NCBI GenBank assembly: GCA_963669175.1
Contig: OY769902.1
Coordinates: forward strand, 320,001-384,000
From: a bacterium
GTDB lineage: Bacteria > Electryoneota > Electryoneia > Electryoneales > Electryoneaceae
Direction of reading: 5' to 3'
DNA: 64,000 bases
The notes below the pieces were generated by a model. The model was not told the origin of the DNA and searched no databases. It was given only the letters and a program-made list of their open reading frames with translations. Both the position numbers and the translations under genes were made by a program. This document shows positions 25,832-45,820 of this stretch, piece by piece (within the stretch, counting starts at the first letter, position 1; the number at the start of each line of letters is the position of its first letter).

Positions 25832-27859
25832 ATGACACGGAAAACGGGACGATCCATCTTACCGGCTTTGATTCAGACCCATCCCGCCTGGGTTCTCTTC
25901 GGGATTGCTTTGTTGCTCCGCATCGTCCAGCTCGTTTTCGTATATCGCCAACCCGGTTTCGATCTTCCGATTGTTGATGAAGTCCATTTTGACATCATGG
26001 CCCGCAACCTCGCGGACGGCACTACGATGCATGACGGTCCCTTCTTCCGTCCGCCGCTCTGGTCCATCCTGCTTGCCGGCCCCTACAAACTATTTGGTCA
26101 GCATTTCTTTCTGGCGAGGTTCCTGAACACCATTCTTGGTTCGCTTGCGGTAACGGCTTCCTTTCGCCTTGGCAAACGTCTGTTTCATCAGCGTGTCGCC
26201 TTTACCGGTGCATTGATCTTTGCCTGCCAGGGGTTCTTCATCCATAACAGCACAACCGGGCTGGCTTCCACCCTGCTGGTCTATCTCAGCCTGGAAGCGT
26301 TGCAGGTTACGTTGTATGCTCGCAATCAAAATCGCCTTCGATACTGGCTTATTGCCGGACTACTGTGGGGACTTGCTGCCATAGCCAAACCGGTCGTGCT
26401 GGTGCCGGTGGTTGTCATTCTCTGTGATACCTTGTTCCGTAAAACAGCAACCGCCGGGTATCGTCAAAAAACGGCCGCGCTGTTTGTGCTTGGGCTGTTG
26501 TTGCCCATTATGCCTGTGACCCTGCGAAACTCGATTTCCGGCGATGCCGTCCTGGTATCTTCCAATGGCGGAATAAATTTGTATATGGGCAACAACGAAC
26601 AGGCGAATGGCGTCATCGTGTTTCATCCTGTCCTTGGCGTGGGCTGGACCGAGACCAATGCGCACTCGTGGGCGGAATCGGAAACCGGATACATGATGAG
26701 TCCGTCCGAAGCTTCATCGTGGTACACACAACAGGCGGTGCAGTTCTGGTTCTATCAGCCCAAACGTGCCTTCAAGCTGATACTGGATAAAGCCTATTAC
26801 ACATTCTCCGGGTTGATCTTCACCAACAATGGGAATCTCGGCTTTTACGCAAAGAGCAATCTTCTTTTACGGTCACTGCTTCCCCTGGGTTGGGGCGCTG
26901 TTTTCCCATTCGCATTGGTCGGCATGGTTCTCGCCTTCCGCAGGTCCGGCAATCATCGCTTGACGATGCTGGTAGCTTTCAGTTACCTGGGAATCTGTAT
27001 TCTCTTTTTTGTGCTGGCCCGTTTCCGGCTTCCAGCGGAAGGTATCCTGGTTCATTTCGCGGCATACACCGGGTGGTTCCTGCTGGGGCGCGAAGAAGTA
27101 ACTCAACAGGCTTCCGGAAAAATTCGCCTGCTGATATCGCTGGTTGTTGTTCTCCTGGCTTTGCCGGTGAATATGAACCTGAAGGGGATGAGCCGTTCCA
27201 TTGATTATGCTCACAGTTATTACCTGAATGGTCAGCTCCTGGCTCGTGAACACCGTTACTCGGAAGCGGCCCAGGCATTTCGTGACGCTATCGCACTGAA
27301 TAAGCGTATCCCACTCAGCTACCTGTATCTCGGGCAGGTTATGATGAAAATGGACAGCACAGAGCAGGCCATAAATTATTTCAAGCATGAAATCGCCACC
27401 TTGCCGAAAACCCAGTATTTCTCTGACCTGGTACTAAATGCTCAAGCCAATCTTGGACGCGCGTATATGAAGGTCGGCGATAAAGCGGAAGCGGAGCGAA
27501 CTTTCCGGGAGGCGCGTCAAATCTATGGTGGTGATCCCGGGGTAAATAAATACCTTACCAGTCTCATACTGGAGCGTACACGTGAAAAGCTAGTGCAAGA
27601 CGACTGGAACACAGCGCTTGAGAACCTTGAAGAAGCTGCCACTATCAACCCAAATGAACCGGCGCTTGCGTTTGCTTTTGCGGTAGCACGGTTCCATACC
27701 GGAAGCCCTGAGCACGCGAACCACATTATGGCTATCATCCTGAAGCATCACCCGGATTACTCGCCAGCTCAACGATGGCGGGATCAGGAGTGGCGCCCCG
27801 ACAGCCATGATATCCAGGAGCTGTTGCTCCCCTTCCTGGATGATGGCGAAAAAAAGTGA
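25832..27859 (+). CDS. GT-C (PMT/ArnT-like) membrane glycosyltransferase with C-terminal TPRs
   Basis: PIVDEVHF, FFRPPL, SSNGGINLYMGNN, ARFRLP; multi-TM N-terminal two-thirds; TPR tail. Confidence 0.82.
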   Translation: MTRKTGRSILPALIQTHPAWVLFGIALLLRIVQLVFVYRQPGFDLPIVDEVHFDIMARNLADGTTMHDGPFFRPPLWSILLAGPYKLFGQHFFLARFLNTILGSLAVTASFRLGKRLFHQRVAFTGALIFACQGFFIHNSTTGLASTLLVYLSLEALQVTLYARNQNRLRYWLIAGLLWGLAAIAKPVVLVPVVVILCDTLFRKTATAGYRQKTAALFVLGLLLPIMPVTLRNSISGDAVLVSSNGGINLYMGNNEQANGVIVFHPVLGVGWTETNAHSWAESETGYMMSPSEASSWYTQQAVQFWFYQPKRAFKLILDKAYYTFSGLIFTNNGNLGFYAKSNLLLRSLLPLGWGAVFPFALVGMVLAFRRSGNHRLTMLVAFSYLGICILFFVLARFRLPAEGILVHFAAYTGWFLLGREEVTQQASGKIRLLISLVVVLLALPVNMNLKGMSRSIDYAHSYYLNGQLLAREHRYSEAAQAFRDAIALNKRIPLSYLYLGQVMMKMDSTEQAINYFKHEIATLPKTQYFSDLVLNAQANLGRAYMKVGDKAEAERTFREARQIYGGDPGVNKYLTSLILERTREKLVQDDWNTALENLEEAATINPNEPALAFAFAVARFHTGSPEHANHIMAIILKHHPDYSPAQRWRDQEWRPDSHDIQELLLPFLDDGEKK

Positions 27860-27955: not shown

Positions 27956-29995
27956 ATGATCAAACGGCTACTGATGGGTACCCTGGCAGTGGGACTGCTT
28001 GCAGGATCGCTTTACGCATTTCCGAGGAAAATCCTCATTGAAGAATTCAACGGGCATGGCTGAGGCAGTTGCAATCCAGCATCGGTGATGCTGCACGATT
28101 TTGTAACGAATGAGGATTATGCCGATCATGTCACGACCGTCGTTTACCATGCCTACTCTGACCCCTGGTACAACATTAACGGCGATGATCATGATACCCG
28201 CTTCCAGTATTATAGTGTAACCGGGATTCCTTCGGTTCGACTTGACGGTATCCTCGGTAACTACCTGCTGAGCGCTTCAGACCTGACAACCCCTTACGGA
28301 CAACGCTACAATGTGGAGAGTCCACTTTCCATTAGCATCATGTCCATCAACAATGAAGATGAGATTAATGTAACCGCTCTGGTCACCAGTGGAGACGAAG
28401 AAGTACCTGCCAACCTGAAGATCCGAATGGCGCTGGTCAGCCTGTTTTACGACAACTTCACCGGCAACAACGGGCAGTCTGAATGGCATTGGGACATGCT
28501 GGACATGGCGCCCGATGCGGCAGGCCAGGACTTTGAAATCGGCCTGAACGAGACGGTTGAGTATTCCGCCACTTTCCCCTGGCCATTCACCCTGCAACAG
28601 GATGAGGTCGCTGAGGATAACGCCAAGATTGTGGTCTGGGTGCAGAACGATACCAACCACGAAGTGCTTCAGTCTGAATGGGCTGAGATTGGCGGTGGGT
28701 ACATGTTTGAAGCTGAACCCGGCCTGACCGAGAAACTGGTTGCGCCAGGGAGTGAAGCCGAGTTTTCCTTCGACATCACCAACACCGGTATGATGGAAGA
28801 TACTTACGATATCGCTATCACTTCCGGCCTGCTCGAGGATTGGTCCTATACTTACACAACTCCCGATGGCGAACAGAACGCTCCCGCCAGCATGACCCTC
28901 GCACCGGAAGCGACCTTTACGAGCACGGTTACCCTGTCCACAGCAGCCAATATACCGGCGTCTCAAGGCTCCATTACCATCACCATCACCTCGCAAAATA
29001 GCCCATTTATAAGTTGCGAGATGACATTTTACGCCATGGCCAACGGGCAGATCCTGGTGTTGAACGGGGACACCGAAGGACGCTATTCAGAGTACTACAC
29101 CAACGCCCTTCATGAAGTCACCCTGATTGAGGAGCTGAATGAAGATCTGAACTATTCGGTCTGGACTGCTGCCGAGCATCCTTTCCACGCTGGCGACCTG
29201 GACGAGGCAACGCCGGAACTGGTGATCTGGTACGTGGGCGGTGAGGGCAACATCACGGACGCTGATGAAACCGGCCTGATGAGTTACCTGGATGACGGCG
29301 GTTCGTTGTGGATCACAGGTTCATCAGCAGCCGTAGCCATGGACGGTGGCGACCTTATAGGGTATATGGGCGCCAGCTTCCAAGATCATTACTCCCGCGG
29401 TTATAACGTACATGGCGAAGAAGGCGATCTCTATTTTGACGGGTTGGAAACACCGATCATGGAAGGTGATGGCGCGGATAACCGAGGCGTCCCCAGCGCC
29501 CTGTACGCGACCGATGACGGCACAGTCTGCCTGATGTATTCAACAATCCGTGTCGCCGGGATTCGTCGCAGCGCCGATACATACAACACCCTGCTGTTCG
29601 GCTTCCCCTTCGAGGCTATCGCGTCACAGGAAGCCCGGACGACCTGTATGCTGGATGCGCTGCATTTCCTGATCGACTTTAACAATTTCCACGGCATCAC
29701 AGACACACCGGATCTGCTGCCGTCAGCTTTTAGCCTGCAACAGAACTACCCGAACCCGTTCAACCCGGAAACGGAGATCCGGTTCACGTTGCCTGAACGT
29801 GCGATGGTTCACCTCGCAGTCTTCGATATTACGGGGCGGGAAGTTGCCAGGTTGACAAATCGTCATTTCGAAGCGGGTCAACATTCTCTGCACTGGAACG
29901 CTGCCGACCAGGCCAGCGGTGTCTATTTCCTGCGCATGACTGCCATCGGAAACACACCGTTTGAGGCAACCAGGAAGATGGTGCTGGTGAAGTAA
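27956..29995 (+). CDS. Candidate secreted selenoprotein: Omp28/thioredoxin-like UxxC domain, Ig-like and alpha/beta domains, C-terminal sorting-type domain (679 aa with UGA readthrough)
   Basis: GGGAGG RBS, ATG 27956, MIKRLLMGTLAVGLLAGSLYA-FPRKILIEEFNGHG*GSCNP; TGA at 28061-28063 is in frame with the 28085..29995 ORF. Confidence 0.85.
28077..28093 (+). promoter_or_regulatory. SECIS-like hairpin
   Basis: CAGCATC-GGT-GATGCTG; 20 nt separate the in-frame TGA from the G-initial loop. Confidence 0.7.
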
Positions 29996-30234
29996 GGCTG
30001 TATAGATAATACTGGTGAAACACTATACTGCAACGGGACTGTCCCTTGGGATGGTCCCGTTGTTATAACAGGTTTTTACGGCCATACGTATGCGTCATTG
30101 TTGACATGGCGAGCAGCAAAACAACAAATATTTCAGAATTCCTTAAAAGGTTTGTCAGATATACTTTACTTACAACTCCCCCTGGTGTACATTGGAAAAA
30201 AATTCTACCATCAAGAAACCGTATGGAGTACAAA

Positions 30235-32376
30235 ATGCGAAAAACTCATATCGCTATATGTTTTGTAATCCTCTTTGGAAGTGTCGCTTTCTCCCAGGAG
30301 CAGGATACACTTTGGTCTCAAATCTGGGGAGTAGGGTTCTGCGATCATGCTAATGATGTTGACCAGACAATGGATGGAGGATTTATTGCATTTGGAAGCC
30401 ATTATAATGATCGGGAGGGTGTAATCGTCAAGTTTGACAGCCTTGGCGAAGCGGAATGGTATCAGGATTTTGTTGCCGGCACCGGTAACTGTGGCTTTCA
30501 ATCCGGTCAACAAACTTCCGACGGAGGCTTTATTTGTGCAGGAAGCATCTACGATCAAATATTATATTACGATTTCTGGCTGGTAAAAACAGATGATGAA
30601 GGCGTTCTGGAATGGGAACAAACTTATGGCACTAACACCAGTGAAGAGTGCAATTGTGTACAACAAACCACTGATGGTGGTTATGTCCTTGCGGGATACG
30701 TGGGATCGGCACATTCAGATTGGTGGCTGATAAAAACAGATGAAGACGGCGAAATAGAATGGGACCAGACATATGGAAACGAATCCACTGATAAGTCTTA
30801 TAGCGTCAAACAAACGAATGATGGCGGTTACATTCTTACAGGTTTTTCCTATATCACCGACGAATCTAATTGTAATCTCTGGCTGTTAAAAACGGATTCC
30901 GAGGGAAATCAGGAGTGGTTGAGTGAATTCGGGATATCTGCTGATGATGCTAATGATTATGGATACGATGTTATTCAGACCTCTGATGGAGGATATGCGG
31001 TTATTGGTGAAACCCGATCGTATGGCGCAGGCGGTAGTGATGCCTGGTTAATTAAAACAGATGAAGACGGCTTAGAGGAATGGAATCAGACATATGGTGG
31101 TGAAAGGACCGAAAGTGGGAATTCACTTCAACAAACATTAGATGGTGGTTTCATCATTGCCGGAGATGGGATGCCAGCCGATATCGGTGGCAGCGATTTC
31201 TGCGTCATTAAAACCAATATGGAAGGTGAAGAAGAATGGAGTCATTCTTACGGCGCAGGGCAAATTGAACGAGCACTTAGTGTTGAGCTTACCACCGATG
31301 GCGGATTTATCGTTTCCGGTTTTACCAATAGTTTTGGAGTTAATGGAAGTGATATGTGGTTGTTTCGTTATGAAGGATTGCTTTCGCCCACTCCTTTTCA
31401 TTTGCTGACTCCAACAGATGCTGAATGGCTAACGATTAATGATACTACTGAAATTCCGTTTTCCTGGGGAATTTCCTCAAGCCTGAACCCTGATGAAACT
31501 GTTGCATTTGATCTCCATATTCATGCTGGATATGGCGACATCGACAGTCTGACTTCTATCAGGGATATCGTGGAAACTGATACAGCCCTTACGGTGCAAC
31601 AGCTTCTTGGTTTGGAATACTGGGATTCGGCTATTAATTGTTCATGGTATGTTGAAGCGATTGCCGGGATGGATACAACTTCATCCATGGATACGTTCAG
31701 TTTCCGCATCATGCCTCACATTTTTGATTATCCGCCATCCGAGTTTACGCTGCTTTCCCCTGAAGATGACGCTTTGATTGAGGTTGACGAATCATTAGTC
31801 ATCGATTTCGCATGGCAGTCCTCAACAGATCCCAATCCGGACGACACAGTTGTATACGATGTCATCATTCACGGTTTAGGCAGTGGTATTGACAGCACAA
31901 CTTACCTTGAGGCTCAAACTGATACTACTCTATCACTTACGGTTACTGAACTCATGGGATTAATCAACTGGGAAACCACACTTGCTTTTGACTGGTCAGT
32001 TACGGCTGTTTCCAGTGAACTTTCGACCGCATGTACAGAAGATTTCACATTTAACATTGAAGCGCATAGTACTGTTGGTAACAATGCAACGGATGAACTG
32101 CCAACAGAGTTTGCAATAACCTCTATCTTCCCGAATCCGTTCAACCCGGAGACGGAAATCCGGTTCTCGCTGCCCGAACGTGCCACGGTTCACCTGGCGG
32201 TTTTCGATATCACCGGACGTGAAGTGGCAAACCTGGCAAACCAGCCTTTCCAAGCCGGACAACATGCCCTGCACTGGAATGCTGCAGACCAGGCCAGCGG
32301 TGTGTACTTCCTGCGTATGACTGCGACCGGGAATACACCGTTTGAAGCGACACGAAAGATGATGCTGGTGAAGTAG
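30235..32376 (+). CDS. Secreted beta-propeller repeat protein (QTxDGG...WLxKTD repeats) with C-terminal sorting-type domain
   Basis: Start MRKTHIA after GGAG; about 7 repeats of QQTxDGGY...WLIKTDEDG..EWxQTYG; two Ig-like linker domains; PNPFN tail. Confidence 0.85.
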   Translation: MRKTHIAICFVILFGSVAFSQEQDTLWSQIWGVGFCDHANDVDQTMDGGFIAFGSHYNDREGVIVKFDSLGEAEWYQDFVAGTGNCGFQSGQQTSDGGFICAGSIYDQILYYDFWLVKTDDEGVLEWEQTYGTNTSEECNCVQQTTDGGYVLAGYVGSAHSDWWLIKTDEDGEIEWDQTYGNESTDKSYSVKQTNDGGYILTGFSYITDESNCNLWLLKTDSEGNQEWLSEFGISADDANDYGYDVIQTSDGGYAVIGETRSYGAGGSDAWLIKTDEDGLEEWNQTYGGERTESGNSLQQTLDGGFIIAGDGMPADIGGSDFCVIKTNMEGEEEWSHSYGAGQIERALSVELTTDGGFIVSGFTNSFGVNGSDMWLFRYEGLLSPTPFHLLTPTDAEWLTINDTTEIPFSWGISSSLNPDETVAFDLHIHAGYGDIDSLTSIRDIVETDTALTVQQLLGLEYWDSAINCSWYVEAIAGMDTTSSMDTFSFRIMPHIFDYPPSEFTLLSPEDDALIEVDESLVIDFAWQSSTDPNPDDTVVYDVIIHGLGSGIDSTTYLEAQTDTTLSLTVTELMGLINWETTLAFDWSVTAVSSELSTACTEDFTFNIEAHSTVGNNATDELPTEFAITSIFPNPFNPETEIRFSLPERATVHLAVFDITGREVANLANQPFQAGQHALHWNAADQASGVYFLRMTATGNTPFEATRKMMLVK

Positions 32377-38814: not shown

Positions 38815-40878
38815 CTATTTCATAAGGATCATCTTTCTGGTCGCCTCATGCGTGACCTTGTCTCCAAGGGCAGTCAGACGATAGAAATAGACGCCGCTGG
38901 CCAGGTGATCCGCCTGCCAGGCGATATTATGAGCGCCTGCAGCGTATTGACCTTCGGCCAGACGCGCCACTTCACGTCCCAGCATGTCAAACACAGTCAA
39001 CTCCACCATCGCCGCTTCCGGAAGACTGAACCGGATGTCTGTGGACGGGTTGAACGGGTTGGGGTGATTCTGCGCCAAGGCGAATTCCTGCGGCAGAATG
39101 TCGCTGCCAAAGCCATCAATAACACCGTTGTATTGGAAATCAGCCATCCAGACCATGATGTTCAGCATCAGGGCCGCACGATGTTCCTGGGTATCAATGG
39201 TTTCAAATGGGAATCCGAACAGCAGAGTACGGTAATTATCAGACATATTCCGTACCGCTGCCCCTAACTGGGTGCCGCCAAACTTGATACAGGTCGTACC
39301 TGCGTTACCCGCAACACTTACCGGGTTACGGTAGTTGTTGGCGCCATCACCACCATACAGGTTGACTTCAATGCCGTCCCCGATCGGGTCATCATCATAC
39401 CCCTGAATGGTGTAGAAATCACCGGCAGAACCAACATAAGTCCCCATCAGTGTTTCAAGCGTTGTACCCGCAACATAGTTCGGGGCATCCACACCGCTGA
39501 GGAACAAGTTGCCACCATTGTTGACATAAGCAGTCAAGCCAGCGATTTCAGACTCGGTCAACACACCAAAGTCGCCAAGGTACCACATCACCAGGCGCGG
39601 ATTTGCACTGGTCAGTTCTTCAAAAACCAGTGGGTAGCTCTCGTTCGGCCATACACCGAAAGTGACCTGCTCGTCCGAGTCCGTTTCGCCCAGCGCGTTT
39701 ACGGCATTGATGGCATCTGCGAAATAGTTGCCATACGCCCCGTTCGGATCACTGTTCACCACCAGCATTTCACCGGACGATTGCAGGAAGAAAGTAAACT
39801 CGGTAAAGTTGGCCGGTTGGTTCTGTGACGTGATCAGGAAGGTCAGCTCGAACGATTCGCCTGGGGTCGCACTTGGTGTCAGCGAGATAACCGCATCATG
39901 ATGCGAATCTGAAACCAGGGAAAGAGTAGCATCATCGGAATGATCGCCATCCGGGAGAGAATAGCTGAACCCCCAACCTTCCGGCACATCTTCTGCGTTG
40001 ACATCTATATCATAGCTGTCATCAGCAAGTCCGAGGTTGAAAATTCCCACGTCAAAGGTCGCAGTGACTTCTGTCGAACCCAGGTGATAAAACTCTTCGC
40101 AAGCGCCAAAGAACAGATAATCCGGGTACCCTTCCGGTGTTAGGCTACTGGAACGCGCCTGGAGGACTTCGCCGGTTTCATCGTCCTGTACAAACACCAC
40201 CAGCGTAACATCATCTTCACCCAGCTCCTCGCCTAACAGATCAACCGGCCAGTTGAATGTCGCTGAGTATTCTGCCGTTGTATAGGCGTCACAGGTGAAA
40301 TCCTGGCCATTGCCGTTGGGCCGCATCGCCAGCAGGTCATGTTCGAATTCGTCCTGCTCGTTGGATGCATCCCACTCCGCATAATTGGAAGTCAAGGCAA
40401 AATGGATGGTATGACCGCTTTCAATAGCAGAGCCTGCATTGAGGACTGTTGCTGTCACATCCATCGTGCTTTCTTCCATCTCAACGGCAAGGAAGATTTC
40501 TATGGGCGTTGGAATGTTCCTGCGTTCCGTTACAGGAGAAGAAATGTTAGCGCTGTTGATCGGCCAGATATCATACAGGCCGTCAATCAAGAGAGCTGGA
40601 ATGCCGGTTACACCGTAAAAATTCGCACGGGTATTTGCTGCCGATCCGGACGCCTGGTACCAGGGATCACCTGCCCCATTGTCATTCAGATGGTAGACAA
40701 TGGTAGCAACCACATCAGGATTGTTTTCAGCATAAGTCATCACCGCCTGCCCCGCAGACGGACAAGTGGGTCACCACTCTGTCTGGAATTCTTCCAGTAG
40801 AACTCGACGCTGGAAAGCATGGGACGAGCCTGCCAGCAGGCCGATAAGTACTACACCGGTGAACAAACGTCGAAACAT
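38815..40878 (-). CDS. Candidate secreted selenoprotein, paralog of 27956..29995 (687 aa with UGA readthrough)
   Basis: GAGGGAGG RBS, ATG 40878, MFRRLFTGVVLIGLLAGSSHA-FQRRVLLEEFQTEW*PTCP; TGA at 40773-40771 is in frame with the 38815..40743 ORF. Confidence 0.87.
40743..40761 (-). promoter_or_regulatory. SECIS-like hairpin
   Basis: Minus strand CCGTCTGC-GGG-GCAGGCGG (8 bp, one G-U pair); 17 nt separate the TGA from the loop. Confidence 0.7.
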
Positions 40879-41113
40879 GTGGCCTCCCTCTATACTTGTA
40901 GATCTACAGCTCCCTCTCGACTCTATCCAAATAAATTACGTTGACCCCGGGAAGGGTAACAAGCAGAAAAAGAAACATTGACAAGATTTTCACAGGTTTG
41001 GAGAGCCTACCAGGAGAACATGAAAACAGAAACGCTTTTCATGTTAAGTTTATAAATAACAGGATACACCAGAAAAAGTCCGGTTGATTTTCATTCCTGA
41101 TCACCCCTGTTCT

Positions 41114-42376
41114 TTACAGCATCGGGGGCAACCCGGGAGTGGGCTCTTCATAAAAGGAAGCCAGATCGGGACGAGCATTGGCATGTGGCGCCAGTCGAAC
41201 ACCAAGCCCAGTGACACCCGGCAGGTGGAGTGGTTTTTCACCAGGCAGCCCCATGTAGCGTGCAATGATCGGTTCAGCATAGTGAACAGGTTCCGGAGTG
41301 GTAAGCTCGCCGTCAGCAGCGCTCTCGATACCGGTAGTATTATCCTGATCTATCGAAAACAACGGATCACAGGACTCATGCAGTTGCTGGCGAATAAAGC
41401 CCTGGTCTGTTACTGTACCGTGAATCTCATCCTGCCGCCATGCCGCCTGCAACAGACGCAATCTTCGTCCTCGCCCCTGGTGAACACGCTTATACCACCG
41501 TCCACAATACTGGACAGATAACCCCGGTGCAGACTGTACCGCCTCCGCCAAAAGGCGCAGAGCTGCCATTTCTGATTCCCAGACCGCCATTTCAGGCTGA
41601 TGAAGGAAGGTGTACGGACGATCCAGGAAACGCTCGAGGTTATTGTTATTCACCGTGAGTTGATGAAGATGAACATGATCAACCCCTATATCCAGCAGTT
41701 GTGGAAGCAGGGCCGCTACGGTCAGTTCATCTTCCGGGATCGCCGGTATCTCGACAGTGACTTTCCAATCATGTTTCCGAGCTCGCAATAAAGGTTTCAG
41801 GCTATAGCGAATCGCACTGATATCAAACCTGATTTCATTCAGTCCCGTATCGGCCAGCGTTGCCAGGCGATAATCCGTGGCCAGAGCCCCGTTGGTGTAC
41901 ATCCACAGGTAGAAGGAATCGCCAAAACGATGGCGAATCGCATGTGTGAATTCTTTGACACGTTCCAAATTCAGCAATGGCTCGCCGCCACTGAAACCGA
42001 CCGCATTGAATCCCGCTTGTGACAGGAACTCCAAGTATGCTTCCGGGACAGGAAATTCAATGCCTAATGCCGTTGGTGGTGGGTCCAGCCGTTGAGTTGC
42101 CTCCATGGGGCAATAGAAACAATCCAGGTTGCACTTCTGGTTGATGAACAAGCAGGACCAGGTGCCCTTACCGCAAGCCTGACAACCGGGGGATAGTGTT
42201 CCGATATAGGGTTTGGTGCCGTTAAAGGCATACTTGACCATGCCTTCCAGCATAGCCAACAAGGTATCACGCTCTGCGTTGACCCGGACGATATCGTTTT
42301 CGTCGAGCCAGTTCACCTTGAAATATGACCAGCCCAGCTCCTGTTGGACACGGTCAACAGCGAATTCTCTATCCAC
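41114..42376 (-). CDS. Radical SAM protein
   Basis: CNLDCFYC motif preceded by LSPGCQAC; FSGGEPLL, MYTNG, EIRFDI. Confidence 0.9.
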   Translation of the reverse strand: MDREFAVDRVQQELGWSYFKVNWLDENDIVRVNAERDTLLAMLEGMVKYAFNGTKPYIGTLSPGCQACGKGTWSCLFINQKCNLDCFYCPMEATQRLDPPPTALGIEFPVPEAYLEFLSQAGFNAVGFSGGEPLLNLERVKEFTHAIRHRFGDSFYLWMYTNGALATDYRLATLADTGLNEIRFDISAIRYSLKPLLRARKHDWKVTVEIPAIPEDELTVAALLPQLLDIGVDHVHLHQLTVNNNNLERFLDRPYTFLHQPEMAVWESEMAALRLLAEAVQSAPGLSVQYCGRWYKRVHQGRGRRLRLLQAAWRQDEIHGTVTDQGFIRQQLHESCDPLFSIDQDNTTGIESAADGELTTPEPVHYAEPIIARYMGLPGEKPLHLPGVTGLGVRLAPHANARPDLASFYEEPTPGLPPML

Positions 42377-42685: not shown

Positions 42686-45600
42686 GTGAGTCTGATTTCA
42701 GCAGACAATAGCAGCCCTTCGGACGGCACTCGCATCCATCGTTGGATCACCGTCGGAGTGTTTGTTATCGCCCTTATCATGTATGTGGCCTCAATGGCGC
42801 CAACCACGTCATTCTGGGATTGCGGTGAATTTATCGCCTGTTCGTATTCCCTGGGCGTGCCTCACCCCCCTGGCGCACCTTTCTTCCTGATGTTAGGACG
42901 TGTCTTTTCGATGCTGCCGTTCCATTCTGACATCGGATTCCGTGTCAACTTCATCAGTGTGCTCGTCAGTGCGTTGACTGTTATGTTCACGTACCTGACC
43001 ATCGTACGACTGGTGCGGAATTGGCGCGGCAAAGAGGAATCGGTCACTGATCAGGTCGTGCTTTACGGGTCCGGTGTCGTTGGCGCATTGGGATTCGCGT
43101 TTTCGCACAGTTTCTGGTTCAATGCTGTTGAAGCAGAAGTCTACGCTATCAGTATGTTTTTCACCGCGCTGGTTGTCTGGCTTGCGGTGAGATGGATGGA
43201 TCATGCGGAAAGACCCGATTCCACGAAGTATCTCCTGTTAATTTGCTATTTTGTGGGTGTGGCAACTGGCATCCACTTGTTGAACGTGCTGGCGTTGAGC
43301 CCAATAGTTTTGCTCATTTATTTCAAGAAATACAAGTTTAGCTGGCTGGGATTCGGCATTGCAGTTGTTCTTTCCGCTATTGCTATCCTGATAGTATATC
43401 CTGGTGTAGTCGCTGGTGTGCCCTATCTGCTTGAGATGGGTCCGTTCTGGCTCCTGCTGGTCGTTCTACTGGGTGTCGGAGTGTTATTCATTTCCATCCG
43501 CTCACGCATGTCGGTGGTGTCGCTGGTAACTGCAAGCATATTGCTGATCCTGATTGGTTATTCCAGTTACACCATGATTTATATCCGTTCCAACCTGAAA
43601 CCGGTCATCAACGAAAACCAGCCGGACACCATTCAACGGTTAATCAGCTATCTCAATCGCGAACAGTACGGCACCGCAGGTCCGGCTGAGATACAACCGC
43701 TGTCGCGTGAATACGAAGACTATCTCCGCGCCCAGGCTCGTGGCGCTCAGAACAAGTATTCGCAATTGATGACGCAAGCAAGATCTTTTGCCAAACAGGG
43801 ACGGTATGACCAGGCCGCTGCAAAAGAAAATGAAGCAGCAGCTTCCTATATGGCGACGCCGCGCATCATCCGTTTGAGCGCTAAAAATGTGTTGAGACTG
43901 AACCTGCTAGAACGTGCAGCTCCGTTCTGGAGTTACCAGATCAACAAGATGTACATCCGCTATATCAAATGGCAGTATTGGACCGGCGAACCTGATCTGG
44001 ACGGGTCAACAACCATCCTGTTGTTCCCGATGATCTTTGCCTTTATCGGCGCTTACTGGCATTTCCGGCGCGATCCCAAACGTGCGATCGTAATCCTGAT
44101 GCTGTTCCTCATGACCGGTCTTGCTATTGTGTTCTACCTGAACCAGCCGGACCCGCAACCTCGCGAACGTGATTACGCATACGTAGGCTCTTTCTGGGCC
44201 ATGGCGCTCTGGATCGGGATGGGTGTTGTAGCGCTTTACGAAGCTATCATTGAAGCCATCAAAAAGCCAAGTGGCCAGCAAAAGAAGATGATCGCCATTG
44301 CCACTATCGCTTTTGCCATCCTGGTTGTCCCGATCAGCATGGGCGCGCAGGGTTACCACACCCATGACCGTAGCGGCAATTTTGTGGCATGGGATTATTC
44401 CCACAATATGCTGGAAACCTGCGAACCGAACGGTATCATTTTCACCAACGGCGACAACGATACCTTCCCGCTCTGGTACTTGCAGGTGGTCGAAGGAATT
44501 CGTACCGACGTGCGTGTGGTGAACCTCAGTCTTCTGAATACGGACTGGTACATCAAACAGCTCCGTGACGAAGAGCCGAAGGTGCCGATTTCGCTTACGG
44601 ATGATTTCATTGATAATGTTCTGACTTCAATGACCCGTTCAACTGCGAAATTCCGCTATCTTCCTACGGGCAAGAAACACATGGAAGTGCCCACGCCTGA
44701 TGGAGGCTCGATTGAGTGGGATGCCCCGGCCACCATGTACGTGCCCTGGTCGGAAGATGACACTCCGGGAAAGAACAACTTCCTGAAGGTGCAGGATGTC
44801 ATGATTCTGCATATCATTCAGCAGAATCGCTGGGAAAAACCGATCTATTTTGCGGTTACCGTCTCCAACACCAACCTGATGGGATTAAGGCCTTACCTGA
44901 CCATGGAAGGGCTGGCTTTCAAGCTGAAAACAGAACGGGTTGGAAGAGTTGCCATCGACGAGAAGAAACTGCGTGAAAACCTGTTCGAGACTTATGCCGG
45001 GAACTACCGGAACCTTGACAACCCGGATGTTTACCTGTTCCCGAACGTCTTGAAATTGCTACAAAACTATCGCAGTGGTTTCCTCCAGTTGGTTTACGAA
45101 TATTACAACGACGCCCAGATGCGTCCAGGTGTCACCAGTAGCGGCATTCCTGAAGAAAACTGGGGTGAGAAGTTTGAGGATCTGACTTCACGCGAAAAGT
45201 CGCTGTATACGCTCAGGTTGATGGATCAATACATCCCTGAAACAACAGTCCCGATGACCAACCGTGAGATCCTGCTGCAACTGGGCCGTCTTTATGCGGA
45301 GTTGGGTGACAAGGAAGCTGCATCGGTCCGGTTCAGGAATGCCATGGAAGTGCCGGGAGTTACGGATTCAGACAACCTTGAAACCGCCCTGTACATGATG
45401 GAATTCACCCCGGAGATTGACCGTGAACGCGCCCGTGCCATCATTGCATCGGAACTCGGCGATAACCCGTCGGTAGAGCAAACGCTGAATGTTGCTTCCA
45501 TCTTTGATCGCGCGAAGATGCATGAAGAGCTGGTTGAGCTCCTTGATGGTATTTCTGATCGCACGGATTTGTCCAACTACCAGAAACAGGAAATCGCAAC

Positions 45601-45820
45601 TTTCTACCTGGGCGCCAAGCAGTATGATAAGGCGCGGGGCATCTACGAAGCGCTTCACCAGGAGAATCCGGCAGACGGTGGCGCTACGGGCGGTTTGTTG
45701 CAGGCTTACCTGGAGATGGGCGACACAACCAACGCGATAGAATTGCTTCAGGACTGGATTGAGATCAATCCACGTGATCGCAGCGCACAAAAACGCCTTG
45801 AAGAGTTGACAGCGAAATAA
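42686..45820 (+). CDS. DUF2723/TMEM260-like GT-C membrane protein with TPR tail
   Basis: SFWDCGEFIA, HPPGAP, AVEAEVY, YLNREQYG, RERDYAYVGS, FTNGDNDTFPLWY. Confidence 0.9.
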   Translation: MSLISADNSSPSDGTRIHRWITVGVFVIALIMYVASMAPTTSFWDCGEFIACSYSLGVPHPPGAPFFLMLGRVFSMLPFHSDIGFRVNFISVLVSALTVMFTYLTIVRLVRNWRGKEESVTDQVVLYGSGVVGALGFAFSHSFWFNAVEAEVYAISMFFTALVVWLAVRWMDHAERPDSTKYLLLICYFVGVATGIHLLNVLALSPIVLLIYFKKYKFSWLGFGIAVVLSAIAILIVYPGVVAGVPYLLEMGPFWLLLVVLLGVGVLFISIRSRMSVVSLVTASILLILIGYSSYTMIYIRSNLKPVINENQPDTIQRLISYLNREQYGTAGPAEIQPLSREYEDYLRAQARGAQNKYSQLMTQARSFAKQGRYDQAAAKENEAAASYMATPRIIRLSAKNVLRLNLLERAAPFWSYQINKMYIRYIKWQYWTGEPDLDGSTTILLFPMIFAFIGAYWHFRRDPKRAIVILMLFLMTGLAIVFYLNQPDPQPRERDYAYVGSFWAMALWIGMGVVALYEAIIEAIKKPSGQQKKMIAIATIAFAILVVPISMGAQGYHTHDRSGNFVAWDYSHNMLETCEPNGIIFTNGDNDTFPLWYLQVVEGIRTDVRVVNLSLLNTDWYIKQLRDEEPKVPISLTDDFIDNVLTSMTRSTAKFRYLPTGKKHMEVPTPDGGSIEWDAPATMYVPWSEDDTPGKNNFLKVQDVMILHIIQQNRWEKPIYFAVTVSNTNLMGLRPYLTMEGLAFKLKTERVGRVAIDEKKLRENLFETYAGNYRNLDNPDVYLFPNVLKLLQNYRSGFLQLVYEYYNDAQMRPGVTSSGIPEENWGEKFEDLTSREKSLYTLRLMDQYIPETTVPMTNREILLQLGRLYAELGDKEAASVRFRNAMEVPGVTDSDNLETALYMMEFTPEIDRERARAIIASELGDNPSVEQTLNVASIFDRAKMHEELVELLDGISDRTDLSNYQKQEIATFYLGAKQYDKARGIYEALHQENPADGGATGGLLQAYLEMGDTTNAIELLQDWIEINPRDRSAQKRLEELTAK

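Follow-up and report, generated by a model that had tools for sequence, protein, structure and literature searches.

An in-frame UGA very probably read as selenocysteine in a thioredoxin-fold protein with a type IX sorting domain from an Electryoneota bacterium

The DNA analyzed here (the window) is a stretch of 64,000 nucleotides (nt) from a bacterium of the family Electryoneaceae, phylum Electryoneota (assembly GCA_963669175.1, contig OY769902.1, positions 320,001 to 384,000 of the forward strand); coordinates are counted from its first letter. The minus-strand gene at 40878-38815 contains an in-frame TGA at codon 36, and selenocysteine (Sec) is very probably inserted at this codon, yielding one selenoprotein of 687 amino acids (aa). 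Programmed UGA-to-Sec recoding in a secreted protein of thioredoxin fold had been proposed in an initial annotation of the window, and the recoding machinery of the genome, the pairing of Sec with Cys among homologs, the hairpin downstream of the UGA and the predicted fold all agree with this proposal. The elements of the gene that are central to the argument are the following.

38815-40878, minus strand: full predicted selenoprotein gene, with ATG at 40878, TGA as Sec at codon 36 and a TAG stop at 38817-38815; 687 aa
40883-40890, minus strand: Shine-Dalgarno-like sequence GAGGGAGG, 4 nt 5' of the ATG at 40878; read directly, function putative
40771-40773, minus strand: UGA as predicted selenocysteine U36, first position of the UxxC active site, aligned with C48 of HBP35 from Porphyromonas gingivalis
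40762-40764, minus strand: codon of the resolving Cys39 in U-P-T-C, a column with at least 90% conservation among 93 homologs
40743-40761, minus strand: putative bacterial Sec insertion sequence (bSECIS) hairpin, with an 8-bp stem (40761-40754 with 40750-40743) and a GGG loop (40753-40751)

The read-through frame comprises 687 codons and only one TGA, located at codon 36 within VLLEEFQTEW-U-PTC. When read through, the sequence around the site is MFRRLFTGVVLIGLLAGSSHA followed by FQRRVLLEEFQTEW-U-PTCP, with U at codon 36 and C at codon 39; the ribosome binding site, the ATG, and the TGA and Cys39 in a thioredoxin-like motif were found as the initial annotation had described them. Under translation table 11 the open reading frame (ORF) is only 35 aa long (40878-40771) and is closed by the TGA, while the next ORF in the same frame starts at GTG 40743, 9 codons past the TGA, and encodes 642 aa. 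The database product stored for the gene at 38815-40878 is the truncated form of 641 aa. A protein homology search with the product of this gene returned three proteins.

The genome consists of a single contig of 5.45 Mb and has one tRNA-Sec (anticodon tca; 64.7 bits against a cut-off of 47) among 48 tRNA genes. The genes selB (347.8 bits), selA (539.2 bits) and selD (355.6 bits) were all detected above their curated cut-offs, and selD carries an in-frame TGA of its own. TGA is nevertheless an ordinary stop codon in this genome, because it closes 561 of the 1610 frames of at least 400 codons (35%).

Residues 1-250 were used as a query in a search of 79 genomes of the phylum, and 147 homologous N-terminal domains were identified in 69 genomes. 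Exactly one in-frame stop was present in 50 of these domains and none in the other 97; the single stop was always TGA, with TAA or TAG in 0 of the 147 hits. The set examined comprised every one of the 50 TGA hits but only 55 of the 97 without a stop, so that its ratio of U to C is not the natural one. The TGA occupied the first position of the CxxC motif in 50/50 cases (49 by script and one, L104, by hand), and 53 of the 55 stop-free hits had Cys at the site. No further in-frame TGA was found downstream in any of 102 sequences. Homology extends to both sides of the UGA, the column of the site shows no variation across the 93 aligned domains, the sequence 5' of the TGA is conserved in frame, and a comparable hydrophobic N-terminus was seen in every homolog examined.

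Sec forms were found in 29 of the 79 genomes, representing seven of nine taxonomic families; in family f3 (16 genomes) the search detected none. A maximum likelihood tree of the 93 domains, built after removal of the motif columns, requires at least 15 changes between Sec and Cys, compared to 31.4 on average and no fewer than 23 for shuffled labels. A locus search with a 12-sequence alignment returned five loci, four of which were phylum contigs already sampled; the fifth was a 30-residue match in a metagenome-assembled genome of Hyphomicrobiales (E-value 1e-4).

The composition of the motif itself differed between the two forms. In the 93-homolog alignment, Pro was present at the second x of UxxC (window 40765-40770, minus strand, for the xx dipeptide) in 4 of 46 Sec forms vs 43 of 47 Cys forms (CPPC, CGPC). 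Phylogenetically independent pairs point in this direction too, although their number is insufficient for significance (seven pairs, four classed as opposite and none as same, p about 0.125). The difference in Pro and dipeptide could reflect redox tuning or a decoding constraint. Two Sec motifs were unusual: C-U-G-G-S in L084 (G009:C17), with Cys before Sec and without the resolving Cys, and U-G-P-N-C in L097 (G075:C227), with a one-residue insertion.

The 8-bp hairpin with a GGG loop, reported in the initial annotation to lie 17 nt downstream of the UGA, is present at 40761-40743 as CCGUCUGC-GGG-GCAGGCGG, with an energy of -11.9 kcal/mol; it starts 9 nt past the UGA, and its loop begins 17 nt past it. 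The bSECIS model, as given in the legend of Fig. 2 of PMC13188914, has a loop of 3-9 nt, a stem of 4-16 bp, a G in the first two loop positions, a spacing of 16-37 nt and an energy of at most -7.5 kcal/mol. The hairpin of this gene lies within all of these published limits. The second Sec-type gene of the window, a paralog treated below, has a hairpin of 7 bp with a GGU loop, a spacing of 20 nt and an energy of -7.8 kcal/mol.

The covariation check suggested in the initial annotation was run on an alignment of all 20 Sec-type genes from the organism's own taxonomic family (f1), which were selected on taxonomy and codon without regard to structure. The helix at the SECIS position was 86.2% paired in these genes, compared to 27-47% for slid controls; the second paralog of the window is one codon out of register in the alignment and was counted among the unpaired cells. 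Compensatory changes were found in 8/8 hairpin pairs, and the covariation score was reached by 0 of 500 shuffles. When genes from the whole phylum were compared with their own synonymous recodings, the Sec genes had a mean z of -1.73, with 23/49 in the best 5%, whereas the Cys genes had a mean z of -0.17, with 7/53 in the best 5%; the difference in folding was supported by a Mann-Whitney p of about 1e-6, a value obtained from related sequences. A strict bSECIS test, accepting perfect stems only, was passed by 20/49 Sec genes vs 2/53 Cys genes, with a spacing peak at 17 nt. Judged from these alignments, the hairpin is more than a chance structure, and it is the comparative evidence that is decisive.

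The product of the read-through frame was resolved into the following parts.

40816-40878, minus strand: putative signal peptide, residues 1-21 (MFRRLFTGVVLIGLLAGSSHA, cleaved before F), recognized by inspection; residues 1-19 are of low confidence in the AlphaFold model
40519-40815, minus strand: predicted thioredoxin-fold domain, residues 22-120, from AlphaFold and a Foldseek match to HBP35 (5y1a); the profile also matches thioredoxins in the PDB
40129-40518, minus strand: predicted beta-sandwich, Omp28-like part, residues 121-250; Pfam Omp28 at residues 85-247 is below the cut-off, and Foldseek matches 2r2c
39109-40128, minus strand: middle region, residues 251-590, made up of a second beta-sandwich at about 251-368 and, from about 369 to 590, an alpha/beta domain
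38818-39087, minus strand: C-terminal sorting domain of type IX secretion (type A), residues 598-687 (PF18962, TIGR04183)

The structure prediction proposed in the initial annotation gave a thioredoxin domain followed by a beta-sandwich: with the 93-sequence alignment, AlphaFold modeled residues 22-250 with a pLDDT (predicted local distance difference test) of 96.3 and placed the U/C site just before helix 1. The best PDB match of this model in Foldseek was HBP35 (5y1a; E-value 1.2e-14, template modeling score 0.82, about 18% identity), and a match to the Omp28 domain of 2r2c was also obtained (E-value 1.1e-5). The family profile hits HBP35 at an E-value of 1.2e-7, with the U/C column on C48, so that U36/C39 correspond to C48/C51. 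Pfam Omp28 (PF11551) at residues 85-247 gave an E-value of 5.8e-4 and 20.2 bits against a cut-off of 34.9, and NF033782, with 30.1 bits against 150, was likewise below threshold. The full-length model had a pLDDT of 86.7; no Pfam match was found in the middle region (residues 251-590), and Foldseek of the full-length model gave generic beta-sandwich hits only, with no match that would identify the alpha/beta domain. The architecture of ∼670-690 aa recurs in 21 full-length homologs, both Sec and Cys, in which the middle region is conserved.

With regard to export, the N-terminus shows the features of the 21-aa signal peptide named in the initial annotation (RR, a hydrophobic core, and SHA before F), although these were judged by inspection alone. 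The sorting domain scored 27.4 bits with PF18962 (cut-off 27) and 30.6 bits with TIGR04183 (cut-off 23). The PorU sortase, the sole component of the type IX secretion system (T9SS) that was searched for, is encoded in the genome (688.8 bits vs a cut-off of 420), as are sorting domains with at least 150 matches, all above cut-off (340 first-look candidates). The T9SS cargo repertoire of this genome is thus very large, and another cargo gene is located in the window at 30046-32376.

Three other explanations of the in-frame TGA were weighed against Sec insertion. If the UGA were decoded as Cys or Trp, by a mischarged SelC-like tRNA or near-cognate read-through, the gene would encode an ordinary CxxC protein, and Cys does function at this site in the 53 examined relatives. 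The initial annotation had named a Cys-charged SelC-like tRNA as the main alternative; this gains no support from a genome with a single tRNA-Sec among its 48 tRNAs, no second selC-like gene detected by ARAGORN, and intact selA and selD scoring far above their cut-offs. The hairpin, which is of the SelB type, is moreover conserved specifically in the UGA forms, and we consider decoding as Cys or Trp very improbable. A genome in which TGA is sense throughout (genetic code 4 or 25) has nothing in its favor beyond the open frame itself; it is refuted by the stop usage given above and is also at odds with the presence of one TGA per homolog, always in the catalytic column, which leaves it a negligible chance, well below that of any other explanation.

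The TGA might also be a true stop, leaving a leader ORF and a 642-aa gene starting at GTG 40743, or it might mark a pseudogene or a sequencing error. The public gene call of 641 aa and the normal use of TGA as a stop in this genome speak for termination. The truncated product, however, would lack a signal peptide and yet carry a T9SS sorting domain, and it would be without strand beta-1 of the thioredoxin fold and without its active site. For this reason the 641-aa form in the database is implausible as a gene call, since a start at 40743 keeps the T9SS tail and loses the signal peptide and active site. The same single TGA is found, furthermore, at the same column in 50 genes from 29 genomes, with the sequence upstream of it conserved in frame. 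A true stop, pseudogene or error is consequently rated no higher than decoding as Cys or Trp, that is, as hardly probable.

Several observations nonetheless weigh against Sec insertion or against the function proposed for the product. Taken alone, the hairpin of this gene is unexceptional, with a z of +0.21 vs dinucleotide shuffles and of -1.31 vs synonymous recodings, 10.5% of which form structures of equal or better energy. In the ensemble, a competing hairpin of 7 bp is slightly favored (pair probability of about 57% vs 42%); with a spacing of only 11 nt, this alternative fails the published model. Since 2 of the 55 examined stop-free homologs have no CxxC motif, redox activity does not extend to the whole family, and the catalytic role is carried over from HBP35, a protein of only 18% identity. 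The signal peptide, too, was recognized by inspection. It should also be noted that selA is present in 74 of the 79 phylum genomes, which makes a test of its co-occurrence with Sec forms uninformative, and that it was not found in one genome with a Sec form (G031), a 720-contig assembly.

The paralog in the window is located on the other strand.

27956-29995, plus strand: paralog of 679 aa with the motif U-G-S-C, in which the TGA of codon 36 (28061-28063) is the predicted Sec; its 7-bp hairpin with a GGU loop lies at 28077-28093

As the initial annotation had claimed, the two genes have UGA at the same codon: the sole TGA of the paralog is codon 36, in the context ILIEEFNGHG-U-GSC. A motif search of the window gave two matches (the second copy at 28040-28072, plus strand) vs 0.06 expected, and at least two matches occurred in 0 of 100 shuffles. 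The two proteins are 37% identical. Their stem-loops are similar, but the shared geometry that had been described does not hold in detail, with 7 bp, a GGU loop, a spacing of 20 nt and a shift of one codon in the paralog. Five paralogs of the N-terminal domain are encoded in the genome, three with UxxC (this gene, the window paralog and C1:1176633) and two with CxxC, which makes the term family, used in the initial annotation, a fair one. The argument from two independent events did not stand: both window paralogs group in a single clade that is mostly Sec and has one Cys form nested within it, and the UGA was for this reason inherited from a common Sec-containing ancestor and not acquired twice. 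On the evidence of the tree, the shared UGA is a case of long-term retention and not a coincidence of two mutations.

Several observations were made around these paralogs. The Cys paralog L142 (G000:C1:1179581-1181596), which lies outside the window and adjoins the third Sec paralog, retains a hairpin of 9 bp where a SECIS would lie (z -2.87 vs recoding); it may be a fossil SECIS from a recent Sec-to-Cys conversion. At G000:C1:1183706-1183776, some 2 kb away from paralogs three and four, ARAGORN also reported a tRNA to which it assigned no definite type and an anticodon call of two letters. Both Sec paralogs of the window are located near genes for membrane proteins resembling protein mannosyltransferases with tetratricopeptide repeat (TPR) tails, at 25832-27859 (plus strand) and 42686-45820 (plus strand). 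The PMT_2 and TPR gene lies upstream of the paralog at 27956 and ends 97 nt before it. The TMEM260-like and TPR gene is divergent and lies just past a radical SAM (S-adenosylmethionine) gene of 420 aa (41114-42376, minus strand), which is placed 235 nt upstream of the selenoprotein gene on the same strand.

The closest curated family is NF045500, "Omp28-related selenoprotein", which Table 1 of a 2026 review (PMC13188914) equates with "Hypothetical protein GOS_C", motif UxxC. GOS_C was predicted in 2008 by Zhang & Gladyshev, whose account in PMC2398784 gives 74 Sec and 312 Cys sequences in the Global Ocean Sampling (GOS) data. The gene described here and NF045500/GOS_C have in common that their products are bacterial selenoproteins by prediction, with a thioredoxin-like fold, UxxC, many Cys homologs and a SECIS-like hairpin. 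Both window proteins had NF045500 as their best NCBIfam hit, with 44.5 bits for this one and 37.1 for the paralog vs a cut-off of 200 bits, a value that none of the genes in 41 related genomes reached. The NF045500 model spans 377 positions, in contrast to the 687 aa found here with two extra domains and a T9SS tail. The likeness is one of profile hit, fold and motif description. Judged by these profile scores, the gene is a divergent, uncurated cousin of GOS_C/NF045500; the recoded gene is real, but it is of a kind already known.

In its architecture the protein resembles HBP35, which also combines a thioredoxin fold, a beta-sandwich and a T9SS C-terminal domain; the motifs align as FTAEW-C-GY-C in HBP35 and FQTEW-U-PT-C here. 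HBP35, however, has Cys, is 344 aa long and ∼18% identical, lacks the extra middle domains, and has a feature of its own in hemin binding via residues 135-344. PMC2907840 describes HBP35 as a surface protein whose C-terminal domain is conserved and whose insulin-reducing activity is lost in a C48S/C51S mutant; its secretion is Por-system-dependent according to the title of PMC3120885. A further likeness is to the Sec-containing thioredoxin, glutaredoxin and DsbA-like proteins in Table 1 of PMC13188914, in which Sec replaces the N-terminal nucleophilic Cys of CxxC at the start of helix 1. Unlike the window protein, those UxxC selenoproteins are small and have one domain, and none is described as T9SS cargo in the Table 1 passages. 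A literature search returned nothing relevant on T9SS-exported selenoproteins or on a selenoprotein with Omp28.

From the parts present, the following sequence of events may be proposed. SelB with Sec-tRNA(Sec) would be recruited by the 8-bp GGG-loop hairpin and would insert Sec at codon 36. The product would comprise an HBP35-like thioredoxin domain with U36-P-T-C39, a beta-sandwich, two further domains and the T9SS sorting domain. Its domains suggest that the Sec-pathway signal peptide would direct export to the periplasm, from which the T9SS would carry the protein to the cell surface or into the medium. By analogy with HBP35 and thioredoxin chemistry, it most likely acts there as a surface thiol/selenol-disulfide oxidoreductase, in which the selenocysteine would attack and Cys39 would resolve.

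The practical value of these results lies in annotation, as the gene product is stored in databases without its signal peptide and active site. Around 50 such genes in 29 of the 79 phylum genomes are probably mis-called in the same way, NF045500 not reaching this branch. The biological value is modest: a selenoprotein group that has been known since 2008 gains a large, multi-domain, type IX-secreted branch. Sec and Cys have been interconverted many times, which also provides a natural comparison set for the benefit of Sec to an extracytoplasmic oxidoreductase. We tentatively suggest, as an idea with the balance of probability against it, a distinct uncurated subfamily of T9SS-exported, HBP35-like seleno-oxidoreductases, in which at least 15 Sec/Cys switches in one phylum are coupled to a change of dipeptide (U-x-(Y/G/S/T)-C vs C-x-P-C). 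If this is true, the surface redox chemistry of the Sec forms would differ from that of the Cys forms and would not merely be faster.

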